Shown one piece after another: positions 4,153-42,708 of a DNA stretch of 42,708 bases. The notes under the pieces were generated by a model that ran no database searches, was not told the DNA's origin, and worked only from the letters and a program-made list of their open reading frames with translations. The stretch's first letter is position 1; each line of letters begins with the position of its first letter. The position numbers were made by a program, and so were the translations under genes. The stretch spans positions 1 to 42,708 of the forward strand of contig CALRBH010000006.1 of assembly GCA_943354165.1 (NCBI GenBank), read 5' to 3'. This DNA comes from Candidatus Uhrbacteria bacterium RIFOXYB12_FULL_58_10. GTDB taxonomy: Bacteria > Patescibacteriota > Patescibacteriia > UBA9934 > GWF2-40-263.

Positions 4153-4237
4153 GGGTTGTAAGGGTTGTGAGGGTAGTGAGGGTTGTAAGGGGCTTCTTTC
4201 CCTTACCACCCTTATCGCCCTTACCACCCTTACCGCC
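4153..4237. repeat. Inverted nonamer array, GGGNNGTAA/TTACNNCCC family, copy 1
   Basis: The G-rich arm at 4153-4192 is GGGTTGTAA GGGTTGTGA GGGTAGTGA GGGTTGTAA GGGG. The loop is CTTCTTT. The C-rich arm at 4200-4237 is CCCTTACCA CCCTTATCG CCCTTACCA CCCTTACCG CC. The arms are imperfectly complementary, with GGG/CCC in register. Confidence 0.9.
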
Positions 4238-4238
4238 A

Positions 4239-4556
4239 TTAAACGTGTTTTTCAACACGTGCTTTCAAAGCGTCCTTGGACATCGATCCGGAAAACTGGT
4301 CTACAACCTGCCCACCCTTAAAGACGATGAACGTCGGGATGGAAAGAATGTTGTACCGGCTGGCGATGGCGATGTTGTCGTCCACGTTGAGCTTCCCAAC
4401 TACAAGGGAACCGAGTTCCTTTGCGAGCTCTTCCACAACTGGACTCATCACCTTGCATGGTCCGCACCATGGAGCCCAAAAATCTACCAATACAGGTTTT
4501 TCGGACTGAAGAACGGAAGTGTCAAAGTTCTCTGCCGTCAGGACAAGCTCGGACAT
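4239..4556 (-). CDS. trxA: Thioredoxin
   Basis: WCGPC active site and a 105 aa product from ATG 4556 (MSELVLTAENF...). The upstream part of the track ORF (..LTTLTTLTTLTT..) is repeat read-through. Confidence 0.95.
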   Translation of the reverse strand: MSELVLTAENFDTSVLQSEKPVLVDFWAPWCGPCKVMSPVVEELAKELGSLVVGKLNVDDNIAIASRYNILSIPTFIVFKGGQVVDQFSGSMSKDALKARVEKHV

Positions 4557-4563
4557 ATGTGAA

Positions 4564-4651
4564 GGGGTTGTAAGGGTGGTAAGGGTTGTAAGGGTGGTAA
4601 GGGGGTTTATTCCCTCACCGTCCATTACCGCCCTTACAACCCTTACCGCCC
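4564..4651. repeat. Inverted nonamer array, GGGNNGTAA/TTACNNCCC family, copy 2
   Basis: The G-rich arm at 4564-4605 is GGGGTTGTAA GGGTGGTAA GGGTTGTAA GGGTGGTAA GGGGG. The loop is TTTAT. The C-rich arm at 4611-4651 is TCCCTCACCGTCCATTACCGCCCTTACAACCCTTACCGCCC. Confidence 0.9.
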
Positions 4652-4656
4652 TAAAA

Positions 4657-6684
4657 TTAACGTTTCGAAATTCCTTCCAACACAAGCAACTGGGCCTTGT
4701 TTTCCTCTGAGTAGGCTTCGAGTATATCACCGATTTCGGCCTTTACACGACTCTTGTAGCGCATCCCGCACTCCTGGCCGCCCTTCGCCTCGCGGAGCTC
4801 GGATTTGCCGAGCTGGAGCCCGATGATTTCGCCTTCGCCAATATACACCTCTCCGCGCTTGATGCGGAGCTTGGCCTTGGGGAGAAGTTTTCCGCCCATG
4901 ACGCGTCCGCCCACGATCCAACCCTCGTCCGTCTTCTTGAAGTTGGCGAGCACTTCCAGCTTGCCGAGTTCTGTAATGATAATTTCGGACGGGAGAAGCT
5001 TCTGGAGTTCCTTAATCGCGTCTTCGAACAAACGGTAGATGACCTGATAGGTGCGGACATCGAGTTCCTTATCGCGAATGAAGCCCTGAGCGGTGGAAAC
5101 GATCTGAACATTGAAGCCCATCACCATGGCCTTGGACGCATCGGCGTTCTGCACGTCCGTGTCCGTGATGTTGCCGAGTCCCTTTGCGATCACCTTCACG
5201 CCAACCGACTCATGCTTGATGGTGTCGAGCATGCCGAGGATCGCTTCGAGCGAACCGAGCACGTCCGCGCGCACGATGATGTTGAGCATCTTTTTCCCGG
5301 CCGCATCGTCCGAAATATTTTGGACATGCTTGATGGAGGCGACGTCTTCCGACGCCTTATTGTTGTCCGCTTTTACCTTGATAAGCCCAGCAACGCTCGC
5401 AGGAACCTCCATGACATCTCCGACCGATGGAGCCGCCTTCCAACCCAAAATCTCTACCGGAGTAGATGGAGGAGCCTCCTTCAGTTCCCCACCCTTCCAA
5501 TCCTTCATGGCACGGACGCGACCGAAGTGCATTCCGCGCACACCAAGCACATCGCCAACACGCAAGGTGCCGGACTGTACGAGGAGCGTGGCGATAGGGC
5601 CCGAGCCTGGATCAACATGGGATTCAATGACCGTTCCGATCGCGCGGCGCGAAGGGTTCGCAACAATGCGCTCTGCCTCAAGTTCATTTACGAAAAGCAA
5701 CTGGTCGAGCAGTTTATCAAGTCCAATATTCGACTTGGCAGAAAGTGGAACCATGATGGTCTTCCCTCCCCAATCGTCTGGAATCAAATTCAATTCCGCG
5801 AGCTGGGACTTTACCTTCTCAATGTTCGCGTCGGCCTTATCGATCTTGTTGATGGCAACCACGAACGGCAGATGCGCGGACTGAATAATGTTGATAGCTT
5901 CCTTGGTCTGTGGCTGAACACCGTCATCCGCCGCAACCACAAGCACCGCGATGTCAGCCACCTTGGCTCCACGCGAACGCATGACCGTAAACGCTTCATG
6001 TCCTGGAGTATCGATAAAGGTCAGCGCCTTATCCTTATGATGGGCCTGGTACGCGCCAATGTGCTGCGTGATGCCGCCGGATTCCGATGCGGCCACGTTT
6101 GCCGAGCGGATCTTGTCGAGAAGCGTGGTTTTTCCGTGGTCCACGTGACCCATGATCACGATAACTGGCGCACGCGGCGTATTTGCCTCTGGGCCGACTT
6201 CTGCGAGCGCGGCCTTAAGCGTATCGACACCCTCGACGTCCGTTTCCCCGCCGACTTTTGCTTCCATGGGCACCGCCTTAAACCCAAGATCTTCCGCGAT
6301 GATGGAAGCGGTATCAAAGTCGATGCGTTCATTAATGGCGGCAAGAATCCCGCTGCGCATGAGTTCCTGCATCACCTTAGGGACGGGAAGGTTCAGGAGG
6401 GTGGCGAAATCACGCACCGTAATGACGGGCGGAACGGAAACCGGATGCGTCTCCGCAATGGCGCGACGCTGCTCGCGCGCTTCCGTGGCGGTCTTCTGGG
6501 CTTCCATCTTCTGGTTCACGCGCTCACGGCGCTTAAGCTCCCCCCAGGCTTCCATGATCTGGCTGGCCACGCGGTTGTCTACCTGAATAGCCTTGCGCCC
6601 AACCGCAAAACCGAGATCCGGAAGTTTCTCTCGGAGCTCATCTGGCGGAACGCGTAGACGACGGGCAAGTTCTGTAATGTTCAT
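4657..6684 (-). CDS. infB: Translation initiation factor IF-2
   Basis: 675 aa with an IF2 N-terminal segment, G-domain motifs [20 protein letters not shown] and NKID, and a C-terminal IF2 fold region. Confidence 0.96.
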
Positions 6685-6704
6685 GGGGAGGTGTTAATGC
6701 GGCA

Positions 6705-6733
6705 AGGGTAATGGAAATGGGCTTTGTAGTCAA
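6705..6733 (-). promoter_or_regulatory. Candidate promoter of infB (TTGACT-N17-TACCCT)
   Basis: On the minus strand, TTGACT is at 6733..6728, the spacer is 17 nt and TACCCT is at 6710..6705, about 20 nt upstream of the infB ATG. It lies immediately downstream of the long palindrome. Confidence 0.4.
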
Positions 6734-6734
6734 T

Positions 6735-6842
6735 GAAACGACAAACGACAAAGAAATGCAGGAAACGACAAATGGTTAAAATTTTACCCGTTTGTCGTTT
6801 CCTGCATTTCTTTGTCGTTTGTCGTTTGTTTTTTGTCGTTTC
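6735..6842. repeat. Long palindromic element, AAACGACAA/TTTGTCGTT family, copy 1 (perfect 37-bp stem)
   Basis: 6736-6772 (AAACGACAAACGACAAAGAAATGCAGGAAACGACAAA) is the exact reverse complement of 6791-6827. The 18-nt loop is TGGTTAAAATTTTACCCG. Extra TTTGTCGTT units run to 6842. Confidence 0.93.
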
Positions 6843-6846
6843 TCCC

Positions 6847-7611
6847 CTAGCGCTGAACGGAGATCGGGATGGAAAGCTCTGGATCGCAGGCGCTCACAAG
6901 GATCCGCCCGCCCGCCGTCTTATTGATCACATAATCCGTGTTTGCCGCGGTTCCCGTATTTGGATCGATGGGAATAGCAGAGAGATAGGTTGGAACAAGA
7001 GCGGACGTAAGATCCGTACAGGCGGCCAGTTCAGTTCCCGCAAGGGTGCAAGTAGAATCACAACCGGACCCAGCCGTTCCAAGCACCTGTGAAGTCCCCA
7101 CGACAGAATCGAGCGCTGGATACATGAGGGCGCTTTGCGCTTTTTTCTTAATCTCATAATCCTTAGCGTACCGCACGGCGAGGCTTTCCAGATTCTCCGA
7201 AAGCGTCCCGGACTCCTCCCCCGCCCGTACCATGCTGATGAAGTATGGATTGAACGTCTTTGGGAAAGACGCAAGCGCATCCGCAAGCCGACTGCCTCCG
7301 AGCACCTCTTCCCGCACACGAAGAAGCAGCGGCTTCAGGCGTCCGGCGGCCTGCTCCGAAAGAATTTCAATGGCTTCATCAATCCCAACTCCAGCCTTAA
7401 GGAGCACCGCGAGATTTTTTGTGAACACCACCTTCTGCAAATTGGAAACGCCGCCGACGTAATAAATCTTCGCGACATGAACCGCATCGATGGACACGAC
7501 CGTAAGTCCGCGCTCCTTCAGGTCCTTCACGGCGTTCGCACGCGTTTTCGCCTCAAGCGTTCCCTTGAGTTTTTTACCGGCTTTGGATGTGGCGACGTAC
7601 GTAAACGTCAT
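6847..7611 (-). CDS. pilC: Chimeric ORF: PilC/GspF-type platform protein N-terminal cytoplasmic domain (about aa 1-165) fused to a pilin-like C-terminal segment; possibly a pseudogene
   Basis: aa 1-165 align to the PilC N-terminus and first T2SSF cytoplasmic helices (FTKNLAVLLKAGVGIDEAIEIL...MVRAGEESGTLSENLESLA...ALMYPA). No TM segment follows. The tail instead reads ...CTDLTSALVPTYLSAIPIDPNTGTAANTDYVINKTAGGRILVSACDPELSIPISVQR. Only 267 nt remain before the stop. Confidence 0.55.
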   Translation of the reverse strand: MTFTYVATSKAGKKLKGTLEAKTRANAVKDLKERGLTVVSIDAVHVAKIYYVGGVSNLQKVVFTKNLAVLLKAGVGIDEAIEILSEQAAGRLKPLLLRVREEVLGGSRLADALASFPKTFNPYFISMVRAGEESGTLSENLESLAVRYAKDYEIKKKAQSALMYPALDSVVGTSQVLGTAGSGCDSTCTLAGTELAACTDLTSALVPTYLSAIPIDPNTGTAANTDYVINKTAGGRILVSACDPELSIPISVQR

Positions 7612-9788: not shown

Positions 9789-10193
9789 TTAGGAGTTCAA
9801 AACTTGTTCGATGGTGGAATAAAGCAGATCAGGACTGATGATGGTTTTTACCAGATATTTCTCCGCACCGAGGCTGATCCCCTGACGTTGCTCGAAGTCC
9901 TGGTCAAGGGAGGAGAGAATAATCACCGGTTGTTTGCGGGTCTTCGGGTTGCGTCGAATTTCTGTGAGCACCTCGAATCCATCTTTTTTTGGAAGCAGGA
10001 CGTCGAGTAATATAAGGTCGGGGGCGGTATGAAAGGCTTTCTCGATCCCGGTTACTCCATTATCAGCCGTATCAACTTCATAGCCTTTTGCCTCAAGCCA
10101 AGCCGTATACATCTCACGCAAAGCCTGCTCGTCTTCTACGACAAGCACCCGTTTCTTGGGAGTGGAAGATGTCTGTTTCTTTTTTACCGGCAT
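9789..10193 (-). CDS. Single-domain response regulator (receiver only)
   Basis: 134 aa with VLVVEDE, LILLDVLLP, KYLVKT and no output domain. Confidence 0.88.
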   Translation of the reverse strand: MPVKKKQTSSTPKKRVLVVEDEQALREMYTAWLEAKGYEVDTADNGVTGIEKAFHTAPDLILLDVLLPKKDGFEVLTEIRRNPKTRKQPVIILSSLDQDFEQRQGISLGAEKYLVKTIISPDLLYSTIEQVLNS

Positions 10194-12123: not shown

Positions 12124-12176
12124 TTTTGTCGTTTTCTGTCTTTATTTGTCGTTTGACGTTTGTTGTTTGTCTTTTT
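12124..12176. repeat. Solo T-rich arm of the TTTGTCGTT family
   Basis: TTTTTGTCGTTTTCTGTCTTTATTTGTCGTTTGACGTTTGTTGTTTGTCTTTTT lies directly after the truB stop. No complementary A-rich arm is nearby. Confidence 0.8.
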
Positions 12177-12373
12177 CCCCTCAGGGCCATATAGTAGGAA
12201 CGTAACCATTAACCCCCGTGTGGGGGCTGTGCGAACGCATTTCTTGTTCTGGACGTTATGGATCTGACACATATTTGGTGTAAAAACAGGCAGAATTTCT
12301 CACGGACTGAATAGCCTGTTTCGGCCCATTTTGTCATATCCGCGCACGGTCTATCCTCAGGGACAGATTCGTT

Positions 12374-18380: not shown

Positions 18381-18480
18381 GGGTCTGTAAGGGCGGTAAG
18401 GGTTGTAATGGACTGTGAGGGGCGAAGATTCGTTTTGTTTTCCCCTAACAGCCCTTACCACCATTACAACCCTTACCGCC
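18381..18480. repeat. Inverted nonamer array, GGGNNGTAA/TTACNNCCC family, copy 3
   Basis: The G-rich arm at 18381-18422 is GGGTCTGTAAGGGCGGTAAGGGTTGTAATGGACTGTGAGGGG. The loop is 19 nt. The C-rich arm at 18442-18480 is CCCCTAACAGCCCTTACCACCATTACAACCCTTACCGCC. It lies between the convergent methyltransferase and rnc genes. Confidence 0.9.
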
Positions 18481-19676: not shown

Positions 19677-19702
19677 AAAGGGCAAGGGCTGTAAGGGATT
19701 TC
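19677..19702. repeat. Short G-rich remnant of the GGGNNGTAA family
   Basis: AAAGGGCAAGGGCTGTAAGGGATT lies immediately upstream of the nusB start. Confidence 0.6.
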
Positions 19703-23637: not shown

Positions 23638-23668
23638 CCCCCGACTACCGACTCCCAGCTACCGACCC
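23638..23668. repeat. Locus-private heptamer array (GACTACC-type)
   Basis: CCCCC GACTACC GACTCCC AGCTACC GACCC. Confidence 0.7.
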
Positions 23669-24395: not shown

Positions 24396-24550
24396 GAAAC
24401 GACAAACAAAAAACGACAAATGACAAAGAAAGCCTGAAAATCCGAAAGGTTAAATGAGCTCATTTACCTATTTGTCGTTTTCTACTTTTCTTTGTCGTTT
24501 GCCCCTGCCGGAGCCCTCAGGCGAGGACAAACGTTTGTTGTTTGTAGTTT
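24396..24550. repeat. AAACGACAA/TTTGTCGTT family element, copy 2 (degenerate arms, nested perfect palindromes)
   Basis: The A-arm is at 24396-24432 and the T-arm at 24471-24501. The core has the 16-bp palindrome TAAATGAGCTCATTTA (24451-24466). There is an extra 12-bp palindrome ACAAACGTTTGT (24527-24538) and a TTTGTTGTTTGTAGTTT tail. Confidence 0.85.
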
Positions 24551-25828: not shown

Positions 25829-27652
25829 ATGCGACCCCTCACAAAGCAGCTCACCATTGCCGTGCTCGCCGTAATTATCGCCGGGCTCGCCCTCTCTTCC
25901 TATTCCCTCTCCGGCAAAGCGCCGGAAGAGGTGACGATCTCCGCCCTCATCGAGCATATTGAGAAAGAGAATCTCAAGGAACTTTCCGTGGAAGGCAGCA
26001 CCATTACCGCGACCCTTAAAGACGATACCGAGGTGAAGACCCAGAAAGAATCGGAAGGATCGATTGTGGAGCTTCTCAAGAACTACGGCGTTGACGAGGA
26101 CAAGATCAAAGCCGCCAACATCACCATCTCGGAACGTTCGGCACGCTCCTATATTTTGAGCTACATCCTCCCCTCGCTCATCCCGTTGATTCTCGTAGGC
26201 ATCCTGCTCTTCTTCATGGTGCGCCAGATGCAGGGCGCCAACTCCAAGGCCATGACGTTCGGCAGCTCCGGCGCGCGCGAGGCGGACCCTAAGGGAAAGA
26301 ACCGCGTGAAGTTTTCGGACGTAGCCGGCGCCAAGGAAGCCAAGGAAGAACTCCACGAAATCGTGGAGTTCCTGAAGAACCCTAAAAAGTTCGCCGACCT
26401 CGGCGCAAAGCTCCCTAAAGGTGTGCTCCTCATGGGCCGTCCAGGTACAGGAAAGACACTGCTCGCCCGCGCGGTCGCTGGGGAAGCAGAAGTTCCCTTC
26501 TTCCACATCTCCGGATCCGAATTCGTGGAAATGTTTGTCGGTGTAGGTGCAAGCCGCGTACGCGATCTTTTTGCAAAAGCAAAAAAGAGCGCGCCATGCA
26601 TTATTTTTATCGATGAAATCGATGCGGTCGGCCGCCAGCGCGGAGCCGGACTTGGCGGAAGCCACGATGAGCGCGAACAGACCTTGAACCAGATCCTCGT
26701 GGAAATGGACGGGTTTGAAGCGAACCTTGGTGTCATTGTCGTCGCCGCCACCAACCGCCCAGACGTACTCGATCCAGCCCTCCTGCGCCCAGGCCGCTTC
26801 GACCGCCGCGTCATCCTCGACCTTCCGGACATCACGGAGCGTTTGGAAATTCTCAAGGTGCACGCGATCGGAAAACCAATGGCAAAGGACGTCGCACTCC
26901 AGCGCGTTGCTGAACGCACCGTTGGATTCGCCGGCGCTGACCTCATGAACCTGCTCAACGAAGCCGCCATCCGCACCGCGCGCCAGAACCGCGCAGAGGT
27001 GACCCAGGAAGACATCCTTACCTCTATCGAAAAAGTCATGCTTGGACCTGAACGCAAGAGCAAGGTCATGTCGGAGGGAGACAAGAAGCTCGTGGCCTAC
27101 CACGAAGCCGGTCACGCGATCGTGGCCCACTTCTCCAAGCACGCGGATCCCGTCCATAAAGTTTCGATCATCTCCCGCGGCTCGGCCGGCGGGTACACCA
27201 TGAACGTTCCTGGCGAGGACCAGCGCTTCCCGCGCCGCGCCCAGTTCATTGATGACATGGCGGTCTGTCTCGGTGGATACGTGGCCGAACAGGAAACGTT
27301 TGGCGATCTCACCACAGGAGCCTCAAGCGATCTTAAAAAGGCTACGCGTATCGCCCGCGACATCGTCACTCGCTACGGTATGAGCGAACTCGGCCCACAG
27401 GTATTCGGCGAATCGGAAGAGATGGTCTTCCTCGGCCGCGACCTGCATGAGACACGCAACTATTCCGAGAACACGGCCCAGCGCATCGACGAAGCCGTTT
27501 CGAAGCTCGTTCATGGCGCCATGGAGACCGCTCGTGGTATTATTACGAGCAAGAAAGTTGAACTCGATAAGATTGCAAACGCGCTCCTCGTAAAGGAGAC
27601 ACTTGAAAAGGAAGCGTTCGAAGAACTTCTTGGCGGAGCGAAACAGAGGTAG
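25829..27652 (+). CDS. ftsH: ATP-dependent zinc metalloprotease FtsH
   Basis: N-terminal TM helices, AAA+ Walker A GRPGTGKT, Walker [12 protein letters not shown], and zinc site HEAGHAIV. Confidence 0.97.
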
Positions 27653-27723
27653 TAGTAAGTAGATAGTAGTTAGTAGATTTTACTTCACCACTACTAACTA
27701 CTTACTACTACCTACTAACTAAG
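27649..27723. repeat. Locus-private inverted array (TAGTAGT/ACTACTA units)
   Basis: Arm 1 is GTAGTAGTAAGTAGATAGTAGTTAGTAG, the loop is 13 nt and arm 2 is ACTACTAACTACTTACTACTACCTACTAACTAAG. The array begins at the ftsH stop codon. Confidence 0.85.
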
Positions 27724-28728: not shown

Positions 28729-28761
28729 CTGGGCCGTACACTAGCGCAAACGACCAGCACC

Positions 28762-28798
28762 TTTTTGTTTGCTCTTTGTCGTTTGAGGTTTGGAGTTT
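28762..28798. repeat. Solo T-rich arm (TTTGTCGTT / GTTTGAGG units)
   Basis: TTTTTGTTTGCTCTTTGTCGTTTGAGGTTTGGAGTTT lies just upstream of the ATPase start. Confidence 0.7.
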
Positions 28799-28806
28799 CA
28801 TCCCAT

Positions 28807-30531
28807 ATGTCCGATTCCCAAAGCATTGAACAACTCCTCAAAAAACCAGGCGCCGCAGGTGCTTCTTCGACGATCCCAAGCGTAGGAGACAAGTTCGATA
28901 CCAAGATGAAGGACATCCGTCTCAAAGAAAAAGAGCAGGAGGCAGAAAAGCAGGCGCAGGCTTCAGGGATTCCGTACGTGAACCTCAAAGGGTTTCCCGT
29001 AAGTCCGGAAGCGCTCGTCCTTATCCCGCGCGAACAGGCGAACGCCCTCAAGACGCTGTGCTTTCTCTTTACTGGAACAGACTTCCGCCTTGCAGCCATA
29101 AGCCCCACCGACAAATCCGTCACGGAAATGCTCTACCAGATGGAAGAGCGTCTCCAGGCGAAGGGCGGCGTCTACCTCATCTCCGAGGAAAGTTTCCGTT
29201 CCGCGGAAAAGCTCTACGACGCGCTCCCAAAGATGCGCAAGATCGTAAAGGGTGTGAAAGTCACGGATGAAGAGTTGGCCCGCTACCAGCAAGACCTCAA
29301 GACCTACGCGGACATGCAGCGCGTTCTTGAGAAGGCCTCGGTAACGGACATCATGACCATCATCATGGCCGCTTCCCTCGCCTTCAACACGAGCGACGTC
29401 CATATTGAAGCCGAGGAAAAGAAAGTGGCCGTTCGCTTCCGTATCGATGGCGTGCTGCAAGAAGTCGCCACCATGCATGCAGAGCTGTGGAAAAAGATCA
29501 TCGCCCGCGTAAAGCTCATCAGCGGACTCAAAATCAACATCACGGACCGCCCACAAGACGGCCGATTTACGATTTTCTTAAAAACAGGCGACACGGACGT
29601 CCGTGTTTCGACCATCCCAACCGCATGGGGCGAGTCCGTCGTCATGCGTATCCTGAAGCCATCGGCCATCAACGTAGAATTCGCCGGCCTTGGGTTCCGC
29701 CCGCTCGTCGAAGCGAAGTTGCGCAAGGAAATCGACAAGCCACATGGCATGATCATCACCACCGGCCCGACCGGTTCCGGAAAAACCACCACACTCTACG
29801 CCATCCTGCGCAAGCTCAACACTGCGGATGAGAAGATCGTCACATTGGAAGATCCTATCGAGTACAAGCTGGAAGGTATCAACCAGTCCCAGATCGAGTC
29901 CTCAAAGAATTATACGTTCGCCTCGGGTCTGCGCTCCATTCTTCGTCAGGACCCGGACATCGTCATGGTCGGAGAAATCCGCGACCTGGAAACCGCCGAG
30001 GTCGCCATCAACGCCGCCCTCACCGGCCACCTCATGCTTTCAACTCTGCACACCAATGATGCGGCTGGTGCGCTTCCGCGTTTCATTTCGATGGGCGTAA
30101 AGCCGTTCCTTCTTTCCCCGGCCCTCAACGCCATCATCGGTCAGCGCCTGGTTCGAAAAATCCACGAGGCCTGCAAGGAAGAATTCGTACTCGCACCTGA
30201 TGTGCTTGCGACCGTAACCAAAATCATGGCCAAGCTCTCCCCCGCCTCCGGAGAAACGCCGCTCCCACCGGAGCAATGGAAGTTCTCTCGTGGCAAGGGA
30301 TGCGAAGTGTGCAACATGTCCGGATACAAGGGCCGGCTTGGGATTTACGAGGTCCTCATGATGGACGACGCCATCCGCGGTTCCCTTTCCGAATCCATCA
30401 ACGAATACCAGGTCCGCGAGCTCGCCCACACCCAAGGCATGGTCACCATGACCCAGGACGGGTTCCTGAAGGCGCTCGACGGCATCACCACCGTCGAAGA
30501 AGTTCTTCGTGTAGCTGGAGAAGGCATTTGA
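28807..30531 (+). CDS. Second GspE/PilB-family secretion ATPase (paralogue)
   Basis: Walker [30 protein letters not shown] and a T2SSE N-terminal-like region. The first Cys pair of the Zn motif is degenerate (HEAC-KEEF) and the second is present (GCEVC). The start is trimmed to ATG 28807. Confidence 0.9.
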
Positions 30532-33482: not shown

Positions 33483-34229
33483 ATGATTGAACTTCTCTTT
33501 GGGCTGTCGCCGTTTATTGCCATCGGTCTCCTGGCCTCATTGCGCCAAGTGAACCAATATCAGCGCGGAGTGCGGTTTACGATGGGTAAATTCTCCGGCC
33601 TCGCCGAACCAGGCTGGCGCCTTGTCATCCCCGTCTTTCAGTCGATGACGAAAGTCGACTTGCGTCTGAAGGCCGTGGACGTGCCGTCGCAGGATGCGAT
33701 CACCAAGGACAACATCAGTGCGAAGATCAACGCCGTGATCTACTACAAGGTGACGGACGTAAAAAAGGCCGTACTCGAAATCCAGTCGCTCGACTACGCC
33801 GTGCTCCAGCTTGCCATGACCACCATGCGCAACATCGCCGGCGAGGTCACGCTCGATGAGCTCCTTTCCCAGCGCATGATCATCTCCGCAAAGATCGAGG
33901 AGCTTGTTGATGAAGCCACCAAAGACTGGGGCGTGGAAGTCACCACCGTCGAGCTCAAGGACATCAACCTCCCTGCCGACATGGTCCGCACCATCGGAAA
34001 GCAGGCGGAAGCAGAACGCGAGCGCCGTGCCGTCATCATTAACTCGGAAGGTGAAGTGGCTGCAGCAGCCAACCTCGCTAAGGCGGCCGAAATGCTCTCC
34101 GCAAGCCCAGGTGCCCTGCATCTGCGCACGCTGAATTCGATCAACGATATTTCAAGCGACGCATCGAACACAGTAGTATTCGCCGTACCGCTCGAGATCC
34201 TAAAGGCGTTCGAGGGGATGAAGAAATAA
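33483..34229 (+). CDS. SPFH/band-7 (stomatin-like) membrane protein
   Basis: 248 aa with an N-terminal TM helix followed by VNQYQRGVRFTMGKF...ITKDNISAKINAVIYYKV...ERERRAVI, typical of the SPFH domain. Confidence 0.9.
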   Translation: MIELLFGLSPFIAIGLLASLRQVNQYQRGVRFTMGKFSGLAEPGWRLVIPVFQSMTKVDLRLKAVDVPSQDAITKDNISAKINAVIYYKVTDVKKAVLEIQSLDYAVLQLAMTTMRNIAGEVTLDELLSQRMIISAKIEELVDEATKDWGVEVTTVELKDINLPADMVRTIGKQAEAERERRAVIINSEGEVAAAANLAKAAEMLSASPGALHLRTLNSINDISSDASNTVVFAVPLEILKAFEGMKK

Positions 34230-34345
34230 ACGACAAACGATAAATCCCAAACGACAAAGAAAGAGGGAAACGACAAACGGGTAAAACTTTTGTCGTTTTT
34301 CGTTTGGGATTTCTTTGTCGTTTGTCGTTTCCTCTTTGTCGTTTT
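34228..34345. repeat. AAACGACAA/TTTGTCGTT family element, copy 3 (imperfect foldback)
   Basis: The A-arm at 34228-34280 is AAACGACAAACGATAAATCCCAAACGACAAAGAAAGAGGGAAACGACAAACGG. The loop is GTAAAAC. The T-arm at 34288-34345 contains CGTTTGGGA opposite TCCCAAACG. Confidence 0.88.
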
Positions 34346-34365: not shown

Positions 34366-35067
34366 ATGCCCGCGTTTTCCATCGTGTCTATCGTATTACT
34401 CGCCGTGTGGCTTCTTCTGTTTGCCGTAGGAAAGCACACGCGTCGTGAACAGCTCATCATGAGCCTGCTTGGAATATTCATCTCCCCGGGCGCACTTCTT
34501 TTTGCCGCAACGGACTATCGAGCAGGTGAGGCGGCGGGCGTAGCCTTTACTGGATTCCCTGAACTCCTCTTTGGATTTGCTGTATTTGGCATCGCCGCCG
34601 TGCTCCACGAACACCTTCCTCACAAGCGTCAGCCCATGGAGCTGCACCCGAAATCCAAACTTGTGCGCCCGATCGAACACTGGCTTGCACGTCTATGTGT
34701 AGTTAGTGGAGTCTGGCTGTTTGTCGCTGTGGCGGGAAATACGATCTTCCATCTTCCTTCCGTATCTGCCTTTATCCTCGGTGGAGCGCTTGTCGGCGTC
34801 TACGTCATTGCGGACAGGAAGGATCTGGTCCTTGAAGCGCTCCTGTCCGGCGTGTTCATCACCATACTTATTTTCCTTATCGAACAGTTTTTCTTTGTGC
34901 GACTCTACCCAGAAGCCGCGGCGGATTTCTGGAAGATCGGAAACCTCTCTGGCCTCATCCTAGGAGGGATTCCCGTAGAAGAACTGCTCTGGGCGGCTAT
35001 TGTAGGTTTCTCGGTAGGTCCTCTCTATGAATTCGTAAGTGGAACGCGTCCCAAGCCTTTCGTATGA
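34366..35067 (+). CDS. Integral membrane protein, possibly lycopene-cyclase-domain family
   Basis: 233 aa with about 6 TM helices and two PxE(E)-type motifs (FPELLFGF, IPVEELLWA). TATACT lies 9 nt upstream of the ATG. The family assignment is tentative. Confidence 0.45.
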   Translation: MPAFSIVSIVLLAVWLLLFAVGKHTRREQLIMSLLGIFISPGALLFAATDYRAGEAAGVAFTGFPELLFGFAVFGIAAVLHEHLPHKRQPMELHPKSKLVRPIEHWLARLCVVSGVWLFVAVAGNTIFHLPSVSAFILGGALVGVYVIADRKDLVLEALLSGVFITILIFLIEQFFFVRLYPEAAADFWKIGNLSGLILGGIPVEELLWAAIVGFSVGPLYEFVSGTRPKPFV

Positions 35068-35456: not shown

Positions 35457-37347
35457 GGCCCCCGTCCCACAACCCCGCCTGCTTAAATTCCCCCGCAAAA
35501 CCGTAGTCATCACCGCCACGGCTTTTGTCGTCCTGATCGCTCTTGGAGCAGGCAGTGCCTATGTCTGGGCGGATCAATACCAAGGCCATATCGCCCCGAA
35601 TATTGCCATCGGTCCGGTAGATGTGAGCGGACTTGAACCGGCGCTCGCCCGCATCAAGGTCCAAAATGCGGTAGACCAGCTGCTCGGAACCGGCATTCCC
35701 GTGATCTTCAATGGATCCCAAACCACGCTCCCTCTTTCCGCCTCCGGTACGGACGCAGTGGAACTCGTCTCGTTTGAAGTCGATGCCGCGATCGCCAAAG
35801 CCCTTGCCTATCGACGTTCCTCGGAAAAGGCCTTGGACACCCTTTATTTGATTCAACATCTCGTCACTCGATCCAACGAGGTCATCGCCGTCCCGGTCAC
35901 CCTTCACGAAGAGGCGATTAAAACTTCCATACGTTCCCTTTATCCGGACGCAGAGATGGCTTGGAACAATGCCTCCTTTTCGTTCTCGCGCATCGGAGCT
36001 GACTGGCAAGGCCGCGTAGAATCCGCACGTCCTGGACGCGTGTTCAGCTATCCATCCTTCTTCCGTGACCTCACCGCAAAGCTTTCGGTCCTCACCACAG
36101 AAGGCTTCGTCACTCTAGAAATTGTCTCTGCAACCCCGAGCATCACAGACGCGGATGCACAGGCCGTGCTCGCCAATGCGGAAACCGCCATGCGCCGAGC
36201 CCCCTACTCCATCATGGAACGTCCAGAAGGCACCGGACGCACCTGGCCCATCCCCGCAAAGGATTTGGGCAGCCTCCTGCGCCCTGACACCTCCGGCGAC
36301 GGTCTGCGCATTGGGATCGATGCGGAAACATGGAAGCTCTATCTTGAGGAACATGTTTCCCCAGAGGTTGAAGAGCTGGCTGTGAATGCTCGTTTTCAAA
36401 TCGAAGACGGAAAAGTAAAGGAATTCGCCGGAAGCGCACAAGGCGTCTCGCTTGATGTCGATGGTATGCGCGCCGCCCTTGAACAAGCGATCGCTGAAGA
36501 CACCACTTCCATCATTCTTGCGACATTTGTGACCGAACCGGAAATCACCACGGAAGAGGTGAATGATCTTGGGGTCACGACGTTGCTCGGGACCGGAACG
36601 TCCTCGTATAAAGGCTCACCGAAAAACCGGATCCAAAATATCAAAAACGGCGTCCAACTCCTGAATGGACTCCTGATTGCTCCAGGAGAGACGTTCTCCC
36701 TTCTGAATGCGCTTCAACCGTTTGTCGCGGAGAACGGCTATTTGCCGGAACTTGTCATTAAGGGCGATAAGATCACTCCTGAAATCGGTGGTGGACTCTG
36801 TCAGATCGGCACGACCACCTTCCGCGCAGCCATGAAATCCGGACTGCCTATCGCCGAACGCCGCAACCACAGCCTTGTCGTCTCCTACTATAACGATCCG
36901 GCCAATGGAAAGCCGGGAACTGACGCCACCATCTACGATCCAGCCCCAGACCTCAAGTTCACGAACGATACGGGACATTTCGTCCTGTTCGAGGCGCTGA
37001 ATAACACAAAAACCCAAGCGCTTTCCTTCAGTTTTTGGGGAACCTCCGATGGCCGCAAGGGTTCCTACACACCACCGGTCGTCATCCGCTGGCTTCCCGT
37101 GGGCGAGACCAAGCGCATCGAAAGTGCCGATCTCAAACCCGGCGAGGAAACCTGTCAGGGAGAACACGTCGGAGCAGATACCACCTTCACCTACACCGTC
37201 CTCAAGGCCGATGGTTCAACCGTGGACACCGTCTTCGATTCCCACTATCGCCCGCTCCCAAAAATCTGTCTCGTGGGCGTAACGCCCATCCCCGGAGAGA
37301 CGCCTGCGGTTCCCGAAACCATCCTCGAACCCACCGTAACCCCCTAA
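35446..37347 (+). CDS. VanW-domain protein with an N-terminal membrane anchor
   Basis: 633 aa with a TM helix near the N-terminus and a VanW core (IAPGETFSLLNAL...GGGLCQIGTTTFRAAMKSGLPIAERRNHSLVVSYY). Confidence 0.88.
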   Translation: MEVEAPVPQPRLLKFPRKTVVITATAFVVLIALGAGSAYVWADQYQGHIAPNIAIGPVDVSGLEPALARIKVQNAVDQLLGTGIPVIFNGSQTTLPLSASGTDAVELVSFEVDAAIAKALAYRRSSEKALDTLYLIQHLVTRSNEVIAVPVTLHEEAIKTSIRSLYPDAEMAWNNASFSFSRIGADWQGRVESARPGRVFSYPSFFRDLTAKLSVLTTEGFVTLEIVSATPSITDADAQAVLANAETAMRRAPYSIMERPEGTGRTWPIPAKDLGSLLRPDTSGDGLRIGIDAETWKLYLEEHVSPEVEELAVNARFQIEDGKVKEFAGSAQGVSLDVDGMRAALEQAIAEDTTSIILATFVTEPEITTEEVNDLGVTTLLGTGTSSYKGSPKNRIQNIKNGVQLLNGLLIAPGETFSLLNALQPFVAENGYLPELVIKGDKITPEIGGGLCQIGTTTFRAAMKSGLPIAERRNHSLVVSYYNDPANGKPGTDATIYDPAPDLKFTNDTGHFVLFEALNNTKTQALSFSFWGTSDGRKGSYTPPVVIRWLPVGETKRIESADLKPGEETCQGEHVGADTTFTYTVLKADGSTVDTVFDSHYRPLPKICLVGVTPIPGETPAVPETILEPTVTP

Positions 37348-37380
37348 CCGCCCTTACAGCCCTTACCACCCTTACAGCCC
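37341..37380. repeat. Solo C-rich arm of the TTACNNCCC nonamer family
   Basis: CCCCTAACCG CCCTTACAG CCCTTACCA CCCTTACAG CCC. It starts in the last VanW codons and spans the stop. No G-rich partner lies within about 100 nt. Confidence 0.85.
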
Positions 37381-37404
37381 TACGTTGTTATCCACACCGA
37401 GAGC

Positions 37405-39575: not shown

Positions 39576-39845
39576 ATGGAACAAGCCACATTCCGCGTCA
39601 TTATTGAACCAGATAAGGGTGGATATCATGGATATGTCCCAGCTCTTCGAGGCTGTCATTCTTGGGGAAAGACGGTCACGAAAACCCAACAGCATCTCCA
39701 GGAAGCGATTGAACTGTTCATCGAGTCCCTCGCGGCTCATGGCGATCCGATCCCGACAGATGTGGGTTTTGAATCGTTCCAGACCGTTACACTTCCAAAG
39801 ACAAAAGCTATTCGCTCGCGTGTTGCAAGCCGACAGTATGCCTAA
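39576..39845 (+). CDS. hicB: HicB-family antitoxin (UPF0150 fold)
   Basis: 89 aa. FRVIIEPDKGGYHGYVPALRGCHSWGKTVTKTQQHLQEAIELFIESL matches the HicB N-terminal domain pattern. Overlaps hicA by 8 nt. Confidence 0.8.
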   Translation: MEQATFRVIIEPDKGGYHGYVPALRGCHSWGKTVTKTQQHLQEAIELFIESLAAHGDPIPTDVGFESFQTVTLPKTKAIRSRVASRQYA

Positions 39846-40059
39846 GATACCAGTCGTCAAACCTCGACGACTCGTAGCGGCACTGCTTCGACTTGGATTC
39901 GTACTCGATCGTCAACGCGGCGCCCATGCGATGTATCGGCATGATGATGGACGCATGACGATTGTTCCAATGCATCCAGGCGACATTCCACCAGGAACAC
40001 TCCGAGGGATTCTGGAAGATATCGAGGTGACTGTTGATCAAATAAAAGAAGTGCTGTAA
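39838..40059 (+). CDS. hicA: HicA-family mRNA interferase toxin
   Basis: 73 aa. PRRLVAALLRLGFVLDRQRGAHAMYRHDDGRMTIVPMHPGDIPPGTLRGIL matches the YcfA/HicA pattern. Confidence 0.8.
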   Translation: MPKIPVVKPRRLVAALLRLGFVLDRQRGAHAMYRHDDGRMTIVPMHPGDIPPGTLRGILEDIEVTVDQIKEVL

Positions 40060-40083: not shown

Positions 40084-40118
40084 TTTCGTAGTTTCGTAGC
40101 CGTTCGTAGGTTCGTAAC
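40084..40118. repeat. Locus-private short-period array (TTTCGTAG-type)
   Basis: TTTCGTAG TTTCGTAG CCGTTCGTAG GTTCGTAA. Confidence 0.7.
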
Positions 40119-40748: not shown

Positions 40749-42708
40749 ATGCACCTCGTTAAACTTGAAATCCAAGGTTTTAAGACGTTTGCCAAGAAAA
40801 CGACCCTCACGTTCCTCGCTCCTAAGGAAGGCGTGAGCCCGCTTACCGCCATCGTGGGTCCGAACGGCTCTGGAAAGTCGAATGCCGCCGACGCCATCCG
40901 TTGGGTACTCGGTGAACAATCCCTCAAACTCCTGCGCGGAAAGAAGTCCGAGGATATTATTTTTTCTGGTTCCGAAGGCCGCGGACGCGCCGGCTTCGCC
41001 GAGGTTTCGATTTCCTTCAACAACGAGGATCGGAGCATGCCGATCGACTACACCGAAGTGACCATCACCCGCCGCCTTTATCGCGATGGCGAGTCCGAGT
41101 ATCTTTTGAACGACGCCACCGCGCGTCTCGCCGACATCCAGCTTCTGCTCGCCCAAGCAAACGTCGGCCAGCGTTCTTACTCCGTGGTCGGCCAAGGCAT
41201 GGTGGATCACATCCTCGTCTCCTCCCCCGAGGAGCGCAAAGCGTTTTTCGACGACGCCACCGGCGTGCGCCCGCTCCAGATGAAGCGTCATGAAGCGATG
41301 TTGAAATTGAAACGCACGTACGAAAACCTTACTGAGGTCGAAATGCTGCTTACGGAAATCGAACCTCGCCTTCGATCGTTGAAGCGCCAGGTGAGTCGTC
41401 TTGAGCAGCGCGATGAAGTAGAAAAATCCCTCCGCTCCCTTGAGGCCGCCTACTACGGAACCATGTGGTGGCAGCTTGAGGACCAGCACAAGACCGCGAA
41501 GGAACGCCATGCGAAATTGGAAGCCGATGTTGAAGCCGCAAAGGGCGGAATGGGTGGACTCGAAGCGCGCGTCGAAGCCATCGCCGCCGAAGATTCAGGA
41601 AAGAAGTCCGAAGCCGACGCCGGGCTTATCGAACTCCAGAAGCGCTACCAGGAACTGCAAAAAGAACGCAGCAAGGCCCGCGAGGCGGAATACCAGTCGA
41701 GCCGCCAGCTTGAGCTCATGAAAGTCCGCGCACAGTCGACCTGGGCTCCGCTTCCGCTTACAAAAATCATCGAAGAAATCGACACTATCGTCGCCGAGCA
41801 GCGCCAGCTGCTCGAACAAGTACGGTCCCTTACAGACCTTACCGCCCTTACAACCCTTACCGCCCAAATCGACGCGACTCTGTCACGTTCGACGAAACTC
41901 GTCGGCCGCCTCCAGCGCCCTGCCCCGGAAGACGTAAAACCCGACCCCGTCCTCGTTGCAAAAACCGAGGAGCACGCCAGCGATCGCGCGCGCATCGAAG
42001 GCGAGATCGCCACGCTCGAAAAGGAAATGGAAACCAAGGCGACGAGCGAAAAGCAGGTCCGCACCGAGCTCATCGACCTCCAGCGCGAACTCCGTCAGAA
42101 GCAGGCGCAGCTACATTTACTTGAAAGCCAGCGCAACAGCGTCTCCATTGAACTCGCGCGCTTCGAGGAGCGCCGTGGGAACCTTGTGCGCGAAATGGAC
42201 GAGCAACTCAAGGGTGAAATCGGCGACATCCGCACCGTGCGCCCATCGACGTTTGCCGACACCGCCGCGGCCTATCCGGAAATCCAGCGCCTCCGCTACC
42301 GCCTGGAACTCATCGGCGGCATCGACCCGGAGATCGTCAAAGAGTTCGAGGAAACGAATGCACGCTTTACCTTCCTCGACGCGCAGGTCAAAGATCTACG
42401 CGGAGCGATTTCGTCGACCGAAAAGCTCATCGACGAGCTCGACGAAGACATTCACATCCAGTCCGAACAGTCGTTCAAGGCCATCAACGTGGAGTTCCAA
42501 AAGTTTTTCAAACTGCTCTTCGGTGGCGGATCCTGTTCCCTGCTCAAGCTCACGAAGGAAGACCTCGAACCGGAACAACCGCCAGGCGAAGGGGTCACAC
42601 CTGAACGCGTCAGCACCGACACCGGAGCCGCCGAACGCAAGGAACATGAGGAAGACACCTCGGTAGAAGCCATCAAGATCCGCATCAAGGAACGCGAGGA
42701 CCGCGTGG
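40749..42708 (+). CDS. smc: SMC-family chromosome segregation ATPase (partial, runs off the window end); unusually short arms with no recognisable hinge
   Basis: Absent from the ORF track because it has no stop in the window. Manual translation from ATG 40749 is open to 42708. The N-head reads MHLVKLEIQGFKTFA...GPNGSGKSNAADAIRWVLGEQS...ITRRLYRDGESEYLLN. The C-head entry (ELIGGIDPEIVKEFEE...FKLLFGGG) is already reached by about aa 520-590. Confidence 0.85.
   Translation, partial: MHLVKLEIQGFKTFAKKTTLTFLAPKEGVSPLTAIVGPNGSGKSNAADAIRWVLGEQSLKLLRGKKSEDIIFSGSEGRGRAGFAEVSISFNNEDRSMPIDYTEVTITRRLYRDGESEYLLNDATARLADIQLLLAQANVGQRSYSVVGQGMVDHILVSSPEERKAFFDDATGVRPLQMKRHEAMLKLKRTYENLTEVEMLLTEIEPRLRSLKRQVSRLEQRDEVEKSLRSLEAAYYGTMWWQLEDQHKTAKERHAKLEADVEAAKGGMGGLEARVEAIAAEDSGKKSEADAGLIELQKRYQELQKERSKAREAEYQSSRQLELMKVRAQSTWAPLPLTKIIEEIDTIVAEQRQLLEQVRSLTDLTALTTLTAQIDATLSRSTKLVGRLQRPAPEDVKPDPVLVAKTEEHASDRARIEGEIATLEKEMETKATSEKQVRTELIDLQRELRQKQAQLHLLESQRNSVSIELARFEERRGNLVREMDEQLKGEIGDIRTVRPSTFADTAAAYPEIQRLRYRLELIGGIDPEIVKEFEETNARFTFLDAQVKDLRGAISSTEKLIDELDEDIHIQSEQSFKAINVEFQKFFKLLFGGGSCSLLKLTKEDLEPEQPPGEGVTPERVSTDTGAAERKEHEEDTSVEAIKIRIKEREDRV
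41827..41866. repeat. In-frame copy of the TTACNNCCC nonamer array inside smc
   Basis: CCCTTACAG ACCTTACCG CCCTTACAA CCCTTACCG CCC uses the same units as the intergenic arrays at 4200-4237, 4611-4651, 18442-18480 and 37341-37380. It encodes SLTDLTALTTLTA. Confidence 0.88.

Follow-up and report, generated by a model that had tools for sequence, protein, structure and literature searches.

What part is played by a perfect inverted repeat that stands between the remains of a type IV pilus gene cluster and the promoter of a translation initiation factor gene? The repeat lies at positions 6735–6842 of a 42,708-nucleotide stretch of chromosomal DNA, analysed here as a whole (the window), from the metagenome-assembled genome of a freshwater, Uhrbacteria-like member of the Patescibacteria, and the gene behind it is infB, which encodes initiation factor IF-2. 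Drawing on its anatomy, its position, the repeat family to which it belongs and the same locus in related genomes, we argue that the palindrome is probably, with a chance somewhat better than even, a scattered, repeat-decorated bidirectional terminator or insulator, this being the function that its sequence best supports for the copy before infB.

The palindrome is built from two 37-nt arms that are exact reverse complements of each other, as an earlier note on this DNA had described. The left, A-rich arm (6736–6772, AAACGACAAACGACAAAGAAATGCAGGAAACGACAAA) is made of AAACGAC units and a clamp, TGCAGG; the right, T-rich arm (6791–6827) runs through TTTGTCGTT, the matching clamp CCTGCA, TTTCTTTG and a series of TTTGTCG units. 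The 18 nt between the arms (6773–6790, TGGTTAAAATTTTACCCG), which had been described as a loop, are nearly palindromic too, with their centre at 6781|6782 within AAAA|TTTT, and this core recurs at 24448–24470 and 34281–34290. Counted from that centre, which has no spacer, 46 nt on each side pair with mismatches only at 6776/6787 and 6773/6790; that is, the 46-nt arms are 96% matched and the whole 92 bp is palindromic save for two mismatches. Two extra T-units (GTTTTTTGTCGTTTC, 6828–6842, + strand) have no pairing partner on the left. Nested within the element is a terminator-like hairpin (6757–6806) whose 25-bp arms are closed by TGCAGG/CCTGCA and which is directly followed by TTTCTTTGTCGTTTG on either strand (6807–6821 on the + strand, 6756–6742 on the – strand), such that this perfect copy reads on both strands as a hairpin with 25-bp arms and then TTTCTTTGTCG. 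Folded as RNA, the full element reaches –63.8 kcal/mol on the – strand (z = –12.7) and –70.1 kcal/mol on the + strand (z = –14.8), and the 50-nt inner hairpin –27.8 and –31.8 kcal/mol, respectively. Comparison of the palindrome with Rfam returned nothing but sub-threshold matches to plant microRNA precursors, as expected of any long perfect hairpin. An open reading frame (ORF) that starts within the palindrome (6733–7092, + strand) was dismissed, as it lies antisense to the conserved C-terminus of a pilin.

Each arm can be read as one half of a bidirectional intrinsic (Rho-independent) terminator, in which the core would supply the loop, TTTGTCGTT the stem unit, the next few nucleotides a G+C-containing clamp and TTTCTTTG the U-tract, with the TTTGTCG units extending the U-rich tail and the A-rich arm forming the mirror image of the T-rich one. 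The inner hairpin followed by UUUCUUUG would then stop transcription arriving from upstream and so shield infB. Its stem is stable and closed by G–C pairs, a U-rich tract lies 3′ of it, and its tail scores –4.65, compared with –4.4 to –5.5 for six of the seven ordinary window terminators that we checked (the seventh scores –3.2). The location is likewise of the terminator type: the element stands 5 nt past the stop codon of a pilC–pilA deletion remnant and ends 2 nt upstream of the infB –35 hexamer. Inverted repeats in bacteria peak just after stop codons. A simple terminator scanner, whose loop limit is 3–8 nt, makes no call at the palindrome, and a consensus promoter/terminator scanner is uninformative at all three palindromic sites of the window.

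Both neighbours of the palindrome can be identified with some precision. Downstream, infB (4657–6684, – strand; 675 aa, assigned from Pfam and from relatives) has its own promoter at 6705–6733 on the – strand, with a –35 hexamer TTGACT (6733–6728), a 17-nt spacer and a –10 hexamer TACCCT (6710–6705). This promoter is conserved in relatives as ATTGAC(C/T)-17/18-TAnnCT, and the consensus scanner overlooks it, since by our own count it has eight of 12 matches against a threshold of nine. Upstream, the ORF at 6847–7611 (– strand) joins PilC residues 1–167, in a single reading frame, to the C-terminal 88 residues of a type IV pilin, whose C-terminus is intact and whose native stop codon is kept at 6847–6849; this bears out the observation that this copy separates a pilC remnant from the infB promoter. 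The pilB gene upstream of the remnant is intact. In the closest relative (IF-2 76% identical; ERR3697022) the contig carries pilC, minor pilin-like genes, pilM, two pilin genes, a 104-nt gap and then infB, trx and trxB; from the coordinates of its genes we estimate that about 8.5 kb of the pil cluster has been lost in the window. As a separate observation, infB lacks a Shine–Dalgarno sequence (window 6682–6710, – strand) and the stretch before its ATG, CCTCCCC, resembles an anti-Shine–Dalgarno sequence. Because the infB –10 hexamer lies just 8–10 nt from the ATG in two relatives, L198 (9965–10003) and L199 (about 9790–9830), the infB of this group may have little or no leader.

The same slot in related genomes provides the most direct comparison. 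In the five relatives that have a same-strand gene upstream of infB (L117, L119, L122, L198 and L199), a short G+C hairpin with a T-run precedes the same –35 hexamer; this plain terminator abuts the hexamer in four of the five and lies about 20 nt upstream of it in L122. The palindrome occupies the slot of the relatives' plain terminator, and together with the hairpin and U-tract on both strands this makes the insulator or terminator role, which had been raised as a possibility in the earlier note, the best-supported reading. In a more distant genome, L134 (IF-2 51% identical), a near-perfect palindrome of about 60 nt made of ATTTGTA-type units (860–925) lies between divergent genes, some 15 nt upstream of its infB –35 hexamer.

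Could so perfect a structure have been created by the assembly itself, as a foldback chimera or through the collapse of two similar arms to identity? The short-read contigs of the source run are indeed interrupted where the arms have their boundaries, which is expected of an inverted repeat that exceeds the assembler's word length. Nevertheless, contigs of that same run tile the palindrome exactly (6300–6772, 6743–6820 and 6813–7300), and an independent lake-water run, X3, contains a 242-nt contig that is identical to 6751–6992 and so covers the loop, the right arm and its flank. Moreover, the palindrome is bordered on its two sides by different unique genes, infB and the pilin remnant, and the family is found at the orthologous place in a second lineage, described below. 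On these grounds an artefact is very unlikely, the least probable of all the explanations considered here.

The palindrome belongs to a family. The 9-mer stem unit TTTGTCGTT occurs 21 times exactly in the window, where shuffled sequences give 0.56 ± 0.72, and 39 times with one mismatch allowed, compared with 11.7 expected. All 21 exact copies fall within five intergenic clusters (6735–6842, 12124–12176, 24396–24550, 28762–28798 and 34228–34345), which amounts to about 0.5 copies per kb with none in coding DNA. These clusters form three inverted doublets and two singlets, all intergenic, and Tandem Repeats Finder detects a period of 7 in them, with 2.4–4.4 copies at 6736–6752, 6811–6841, 12145–12175 and 24397–24427 and up to 8.4 copies at 34228–34344. 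Their eight arms align over about 60 nt with 74–87% identity and share one order of parts: half of the core (TTTA(A)CC), TTTGTCGTT, a variable G+C-containing clamp (CCTGCA, CTGTC, CTAC, CCCTC or CAGGC), TTTnTTTG and the heptamer units. The columns of TTTnTTTG, right after the clamp, are invariant in all eight arms, and the distal end of the arm carries two to five TTTGTCG-like units, mostly finishing in TTTC. Given this fixed compound plan, the arm is more than a plain microsatellite.

The degenerate copies at 24396–24550 and 34228–34345, with their GGT(T)AAA..TTTACC core, are as they had been reported. The former lies in a divergent gap, between the gene of a 224-aa protein on the – strand and rpsA on the + strand, and contains in addition a G+C hairpin module (24497–24532) followed by TTTGTTG/TTTGTAG units; the latter starts within the stop codon of a Band7 gene and has a private TTTGGGA unit common to both arms. 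Beyond it, a gene with a lycopene-cyclase domain (+ strand) is called from a TTG that lies within the T-arm (34315), although the ATG at 34366 is more likely to be its start. The solo T-arms that had been listed at 12124–12176 and 28762–28798 fare differently: the first (+ strand), which starts at the truB stop codon, is indeed alone, whereas the second has a single A-unit partner, CAAACGAC (28748–28755), so that the copy extends over 28748–28798 (+ strand), just upstream of a second pilB-like gene (ATG at 28807). The centres of the copies vary, from 18 nt and 23 nt to an 8-nt loop or an insertion of 52 nt, the last two being seen in further family members on other contigs of the same depth in the metagenome, some of which have no core. 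Other copies, in the window and on these same-depth contigs, begin at a stop codon or a few nucleotides from one.

When the eight arms were combined into an nhmmer profile, it matched no additional arm in the window, in the 5.3 kb past its left end, or in L198 and L199. A metagenome scan with IF-2 yielded 80 loci, and those without the repeat cluster hold at most two stray copies of the 9-mer each, unclustered; relatives whose IF-2 is 71% identical or less do not have the 9-mer. A scan of contigs with the pattern TTTGTCGTT-N9–18-TTTGTCGTTTG gave, among the matches listed, mostly plain (TTTGTCG)n microsatellites of cyanobacteria, Bacteroidales and others, and no close relative. T-arm-like arrays in two Saccharibacteria (L026 and L049) were set aside, being at unrelated loci. 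In run X1 the word depth rises from about 9 in the flanks to about 965 over 6810–6843; the (TTTGTCG)n words are therefore common to something far more abundant in X1, either other organisms with the heptamer or many copies of it.

A family of this kind might owe its distribution to its own spread, as a selfish or neutral scattered repeat of the miniature inverted-repeat transposable element (MITE) or REPIN type, with solo arms as decayed halves and no role for the copy before infB. The 60-nt plan shared by eight arms at five loci at 74–87% identity does imply copying between loci, and copies are found in same-direction and divergent gaps alike; solo arms occur, more same-depth contigs carry copies with the modular centres described above, and the consensus is kept in a second lineage, as in REP families. 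A sister palindrome of a different 9-mer family (4565–4652) fills the infB–trx gap, which measures 100 nt in the window and 3–26 nt in relatives, and so is an insertion. Copies in divergent gaps, together with the solo arms, show that the family spreads or decays too, and the differing centres of copies elsewhere in the metagenome are those of a scattered repeat of modular build. Against this reading, the bases flanking the three palindromic copies (CAATG../..CTCCC, GAAAT../..TCGCG and GAATG.., the right end of the last being ambiguous) show no target-site duplication. Alignment of the copies upholds the shared layout of about 60 nt and the core and fails to reveal sharp common ends or a defined length: arms have two to five distal units, centres differ and one copy has an extra G+C module. 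Terminal inverted repeats are a trivial property here, since the whole element is palindromic. There is neither an autonomous transposon nor a cognate Y1 transposase (REP-associated tyrosine transposase, RAYT) among the ORFs of the window, and no family match was found in plasmids, phages or viral contigs. A MITE-like insertion, as had been suggested, thus finds no backing, and the U-tract as the best-conserved part of the arm, together with the site's correspondence to the relatives' terminator slot, leaves a purely selfish repeat an unlikely alternative.

Nor does the insertion appear to be recent, contrary to another suggestion made for the perfect copy. A 1.9-kb contig from another run, L200, encodes a pilin whose protein is 70% identical to that of the window and whose DNA is 73% identical over 267 nt, and there the family begins 1 nt after the orthologous stop codon: three window copies contain its 17-mer GACAAACGACAAAGAAA unchanged, and over 57 nt, the G+C module among them, it is 91% identical to the arm at 24487–24543. 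The presence of the family at the orthologous pilin stop indicates that the site is old and that the family consensus has been maintained, either by selection or by copying among many members. In both the L200 copy and the window copy at 24497–24550 the G+C hairpin is flanked by A-units and T-units, and both modules look like an ordinary terminator whose U-tract is built of family heptamers.

A conserved unit sequence next to a promoter also raises the possibility that the arrays bind protein, the TTTGTCG units and/or the GGTTAAA..TTTACC core acting as putative operators or UP-like elements for the adjacent promoters, namely those of infB, rpsA, the 224-aa gene, the second pilB-like gene and the lycopene-cyclase-domain gene. 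Consistent with this, at every site a T-arm is directed towards a gene start that lies 10–200 nt away, and at infB the array abuts the –35 hexamer; two such palindromes lie in divergent promoter gaps (24396–24550, and the one upstream of infB in L134); the units are identical in a lineage with pilin DNA only 73% identical; and the core is a dyad, like the operators of dimeric proteins. On the other side, two of the eight arms face the 3′ end of a gene, the likely rny promoter lies, by our own reading of the sequence, about 170 nt beyond the array at 12124, and some copies elsewhere in the metagenome have no core. Within 43 kb there are at least two more unit families of the same architecture, and relatives use other units in the same slots, which argues for structure rather than for one binding protein, and no candidate binding protein was identified. 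We consider this explanation improbable. A related idea, that the TTGTCG hexamers within the units serve as –35 elements, is not borne out: the promoter of infB itself, the conserved TTGACT-17-TACCCT, lies outside the repeat, and on our own sequence reading only the arm at 12167–12195 has a unit at the proper distance from a –10-like hexamer.

Several observations count against termination as the function of the element, or limit how far it reaches. The full hairpin with 46-bp arms has no U-rich tract 3′ of its stem on the – strand, where its tail, CATTGACT, scores –2.06 and has no U-run; termination must therefore rely on the inner hairpin. The genes on both sides point away from the copy at 24396–24550, and likewise from the array-type palindrome of L134, and such divergent gaps have no need of a terminator; the lone arm at 12124–12176 has no significant fold. 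In four of the five same-direction gaps the antisense RNA folds better than the sense RNA, a comparison that gives no sign of selection on the sense transcript and makes the palindromes look strand-symmetric and shaped at the level of DNA. Finally, the two other hairpin families of the window, with 9-mer GGGTTGTAA and 7-mer TAGTAGA units, have no U-tract, and so "terminator" cannot explain the class as a whole.

The stem might act instead in RNA processing or stability, with RNase III cutting the 37–46-bp stem or the stem blocking 3′ exonucleases, so as to uncouple the upstream mRNA from infB. A perfect stem of at least 37 bp with a folding energy of –64 to –70 kcal/mol would suit such a role, rnc, the gene for RNase III, is encoded in the window, and sister families without U-tracts fill the stop-to-start gaps inside likely operons (infB–trx–trxB, and ftsH with the next gene). 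Against it stand the position of infB's own promoter downstream of the hairpin and the absence of any bias towards stability on the sense strand, and we regard it as decidedly improbable as the principal function. It could still enter the bidirectional terminator reading as a second step, in that on read-through the full 37–46-bp stem would become a substrate for the RNase III of the genome.

How might a terminator have acquired such arms? The anatomy of the sequence, its position, its enrichment, its comparison with relatives and its authenticity are shown by the data, and termination, the RNase III step and the mutational origin alike are inferred. At the DNA level, slippage would expand the units of the A-tract and the U-tract, and template switching within the palindrome would recopy one arm from the other, with the result that the A-tract and U-tract of a terminator would have grown into heptamer arrays that pair with each other. 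Arm-to-arm template switching fits the dyad centres without spacers (AAAA|TTTT and GAG|CTC) and the private variants common to both arms of a site (CCTGCA at 6735–6842, TTTGGGA at 34228–34345), and it would also account for the existence of a single perfect copy. The perfection of the copy at 6735–6842 is better explained in this manner, by one arm recopied from the other.

The palindrome is also one case of a wider class. The window contains 18 tandem arrays of period 6–12, compared with 0.33 in shuffles; these arrays begin 0–9 nt from the upstream stop codon and often span the whole gap to the next start. The 9-mer family GGGTTGTAA/CCCTTACCA is found at 4153–4241, 4565–4652 and 18381–18477, with solo arrays at 37342–37381 and a further occurrence at 19686–19697; written as (GGGTKGTAA)n..(CCCTTACMR)n, it forms hairpins of –44 to –57 kcal/mol in the trx–trxB, infB–trx and rnc-convergent gaps. 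Its G-arm is G3N6 repeated four to five times, a textbook G-quadruplex motif. A heptamer family, TAGTAGA/ACTACTA, takes up most of the gap between ftsH and the next gene (27647–27720; –34.8 kcal/mol, z = –5.4). In relatives the same gaps can hold other units: between trx and trxB the 9-mer palindrome of the window is matched by a GTAGTGC/GCACTAC heptamer palindrome in L198 and L199, and after truB the T-arm of the window is matched by an array of CCCCTTCNG in L198 and by nothing in L199. The related loci, 0.97 Mb in all, contain 208 arrays and 31 inverted pairs, which are concentrated in a few lineages.

Other features of the window and its relatives touch on these arrays. A (CCGACTA)n array follows the 224-aa gene (23641–23666), and a relative with IF-2 64% identical has about 11 copies of TCCGACT, a nearly identical unit, between the infB promoter and the start codon (L117 7777–7852 / L118 9900–9975). 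Within smc, which runs from 40749 to the window end, an in-frame 9-mer array of the CCCTTACAG type (41827–41865, + strand) encodes SLTDLTALTTLTAQ as part of the SMC coiled coil; this is either a case of the intergenic 9-mer family invading a gene or a chance resemblance. A 437-nt gap contains a HicA-toxin ORF that is uncalled in the public annotation (39838–40059, + strand; 73 aa, Pfam E = 3e-17), and after it come an array of TTCGTAG 7/8-mers (40085–40116) and two ordinary terminators. The trx gene (4239–4556, – strand) is called as 128 aa in the public annotation, which extends it into the repeat, and alignment with relatives puts its start at 4556 (105 aa). The surrounding genes are largely housekeeping genes (leuS, trxB, trx, infB, truB, rny, hup, rnc, nusB, rpmF, gyrA, rpsA, ftsH, tsaD/E, clpP and smc), joined by two pilB-like genes, a histidine kinase with two receivers and the hicA toxin gene; the best named relatives of the IF-2 are Candidatus Uhrbacteria and "Patescibacteria group". 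The window corresponds, in reverse orientation, to bases 5–42712 of a 298-kb scaffold.

With ComEC and type IV pilus genes in the genome, a density of TTTGTCGTT of about 0.5 copies per kb and inverted pairs after stop codons, one might ask whether this 9-mer is a DNA uptake signal, a tag for the competence or pilus machinery that is paired to form terminators as in Neisseria and Haemophilus. The 21 copies all lie outside coding DNA, in clustered tandem arrays, several unrelated unit families share the architecture, and the 9-mer is absent from the 0.97 Mb of related genomes save for nine scattered, unclustered single copies, all of which makes an uptake signal very improbable.

Taken together with the coexisting families, the terminator reading invites a broader proposal, which we put forward tentatively and regard as possible rather than likely: that in Uhrbacteria-like Patescibacteria lineage-specific inverted arrays of 7–9-nt tandem units, arising by slippage and arm-to-arm template switching, systematically occupy the intergenic slots after stop codons and before promoters, and that the TTTGTCG family is a portable, sequence-conserved bidirectional terminator module which moves from locus to locus, or to which a dedicated protein binds, and which is retained across lineages. 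If true, terminators and intercistronic hairpins would here evolve in a way that has not been described in the candidate phyla radiation, whose expression signals are almost unstudied because the organisms are uncultured. In the 43-kb window most of the longer intergenic gaps hold hairpins of short tandem units that replace terminators or fill stop-to-start gaps, and relatives hold different units in those same slots. If the TTTGTCG family terminates transcription, it would provide a ready-made, testable terminator module for these genomes and a clear example of slippage and palindrome correction remodelling terminators. Such elements also have practical consequences: short-read assemblies break in them, as at the three palindromic copies of the family, and they lead to wrongly called gene starts, as for trx and the lycopene-cyclase-domain gene, both of which bear on the quality of metagenome-assembled genomes.

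Among known systems, the closest parallel in unit structure comes from Xanthomonas, where tandem 7-nt units, mostly about four per array and some 90% intergenic, lie on average 28 nt from the end of the upstream ORF, where 70–75 cases of two inverted arrays able to form a stem-loop or cruciform are known, and where arrays vary in length and sequence at the same site between close relatives (PMC4692102). Heptamers are the commonest class of long simple sequence repeats (SSRs), and polymerase slippage is the cause proposed in the study summarised in PMC4679880 (Mrazek et al., 2007). The window resembles the inverted GGGAATC arrays of Xanthomonas and the long SSRs in having head-to-tail 7-nt units above chance, intergenic and near the end of the upstream ORF, in inverted pairs. 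It differs in the fixed plan of the arm (core, proximal unit, clamp, U-tract and distal units) in place of a plain microsatellite, in units that are A/T-rich and terminator-like and do not form G-quadruplexes, in the presence of at least three unit families within 43 kb and in its host, a Patescibacterium with a reduced genome. As for variation in unit number, the X3 contig, the only independent one, is identical over 6751–6992, and between lineages the same slot holds different arrays. The short tandemly repeated repetitive (STRR) heptamers of cyanobacteria and the TAACTGA repeats of Beggiatoaceae are mostly direct arrays, often just upstream of start codons, with 169 direct sets and one inverted set of TAACTGA in Beggiatoaceae (PMC4679880). 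They share with the window the lineage-specific tandem heptamers in intergenic DNA near gene ends, whereas inverted pairing and a compound arm are the rule here; (TTTGTCG)n arrays themselves occur in many cyanobacterial and Bacteroidales genomes among the matches listed. A literature search found no description of such a pattern for the candidate phyla radiation.

In their distribution the copies recall the repetitive extragenic palindromic (REP) elements, bacterial interspersed mosaic elements (BIMEs) and REPINs of Proteobacteria, which are extragenic, lie just after stop codons as inverted doublets and decayed singlets, keep their consensus across related species and have known roles that include protection of mRNA 3′ ends and termination. 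The three doublets and two singlets of the window conform to this pattern; unlike the REP unit, a 20–40-nt imperfect palindrome mobilised by RAYT, the arms here are direct heptamers with no dyad of their own, and the window has no RAYT gene. The Correia elements of Neisseria and the paired DNA uptake sequences and uptake signal sequences (DUS/USS) are likewise small, scattered intergenic inverted repeats, able to serve as terminators, as targets of RNase III or as donors of promoters. The over-represented short word paired after genes is common to DUS/USS and the present family, which by contrast has no TA duplication, fixed length or terminal repeats, is absent from coding DNA and has arms of tandem units. 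To bidirectional intrinsic terminators, which this genome uses widely, the likeness extends to the A-rich 5′ flank, the G–C-closed stem, the U-rich 3′ flank, the symmetry of the two strands and the place between a stop codon and the next promoter. The ordinary terminators of the window that we checked have stems of about 7–13 bp, whereas the arms here measure 25 to 46 bp, their A- and U-tracts are heptamer arrays that pair with each other and the element belongs to a scattered family. The palindrome before infB combines, in an unstudied group of hosts, features of inverted long-SSR arrays, REP-like extragenic palindromes and bidirectional terminators.

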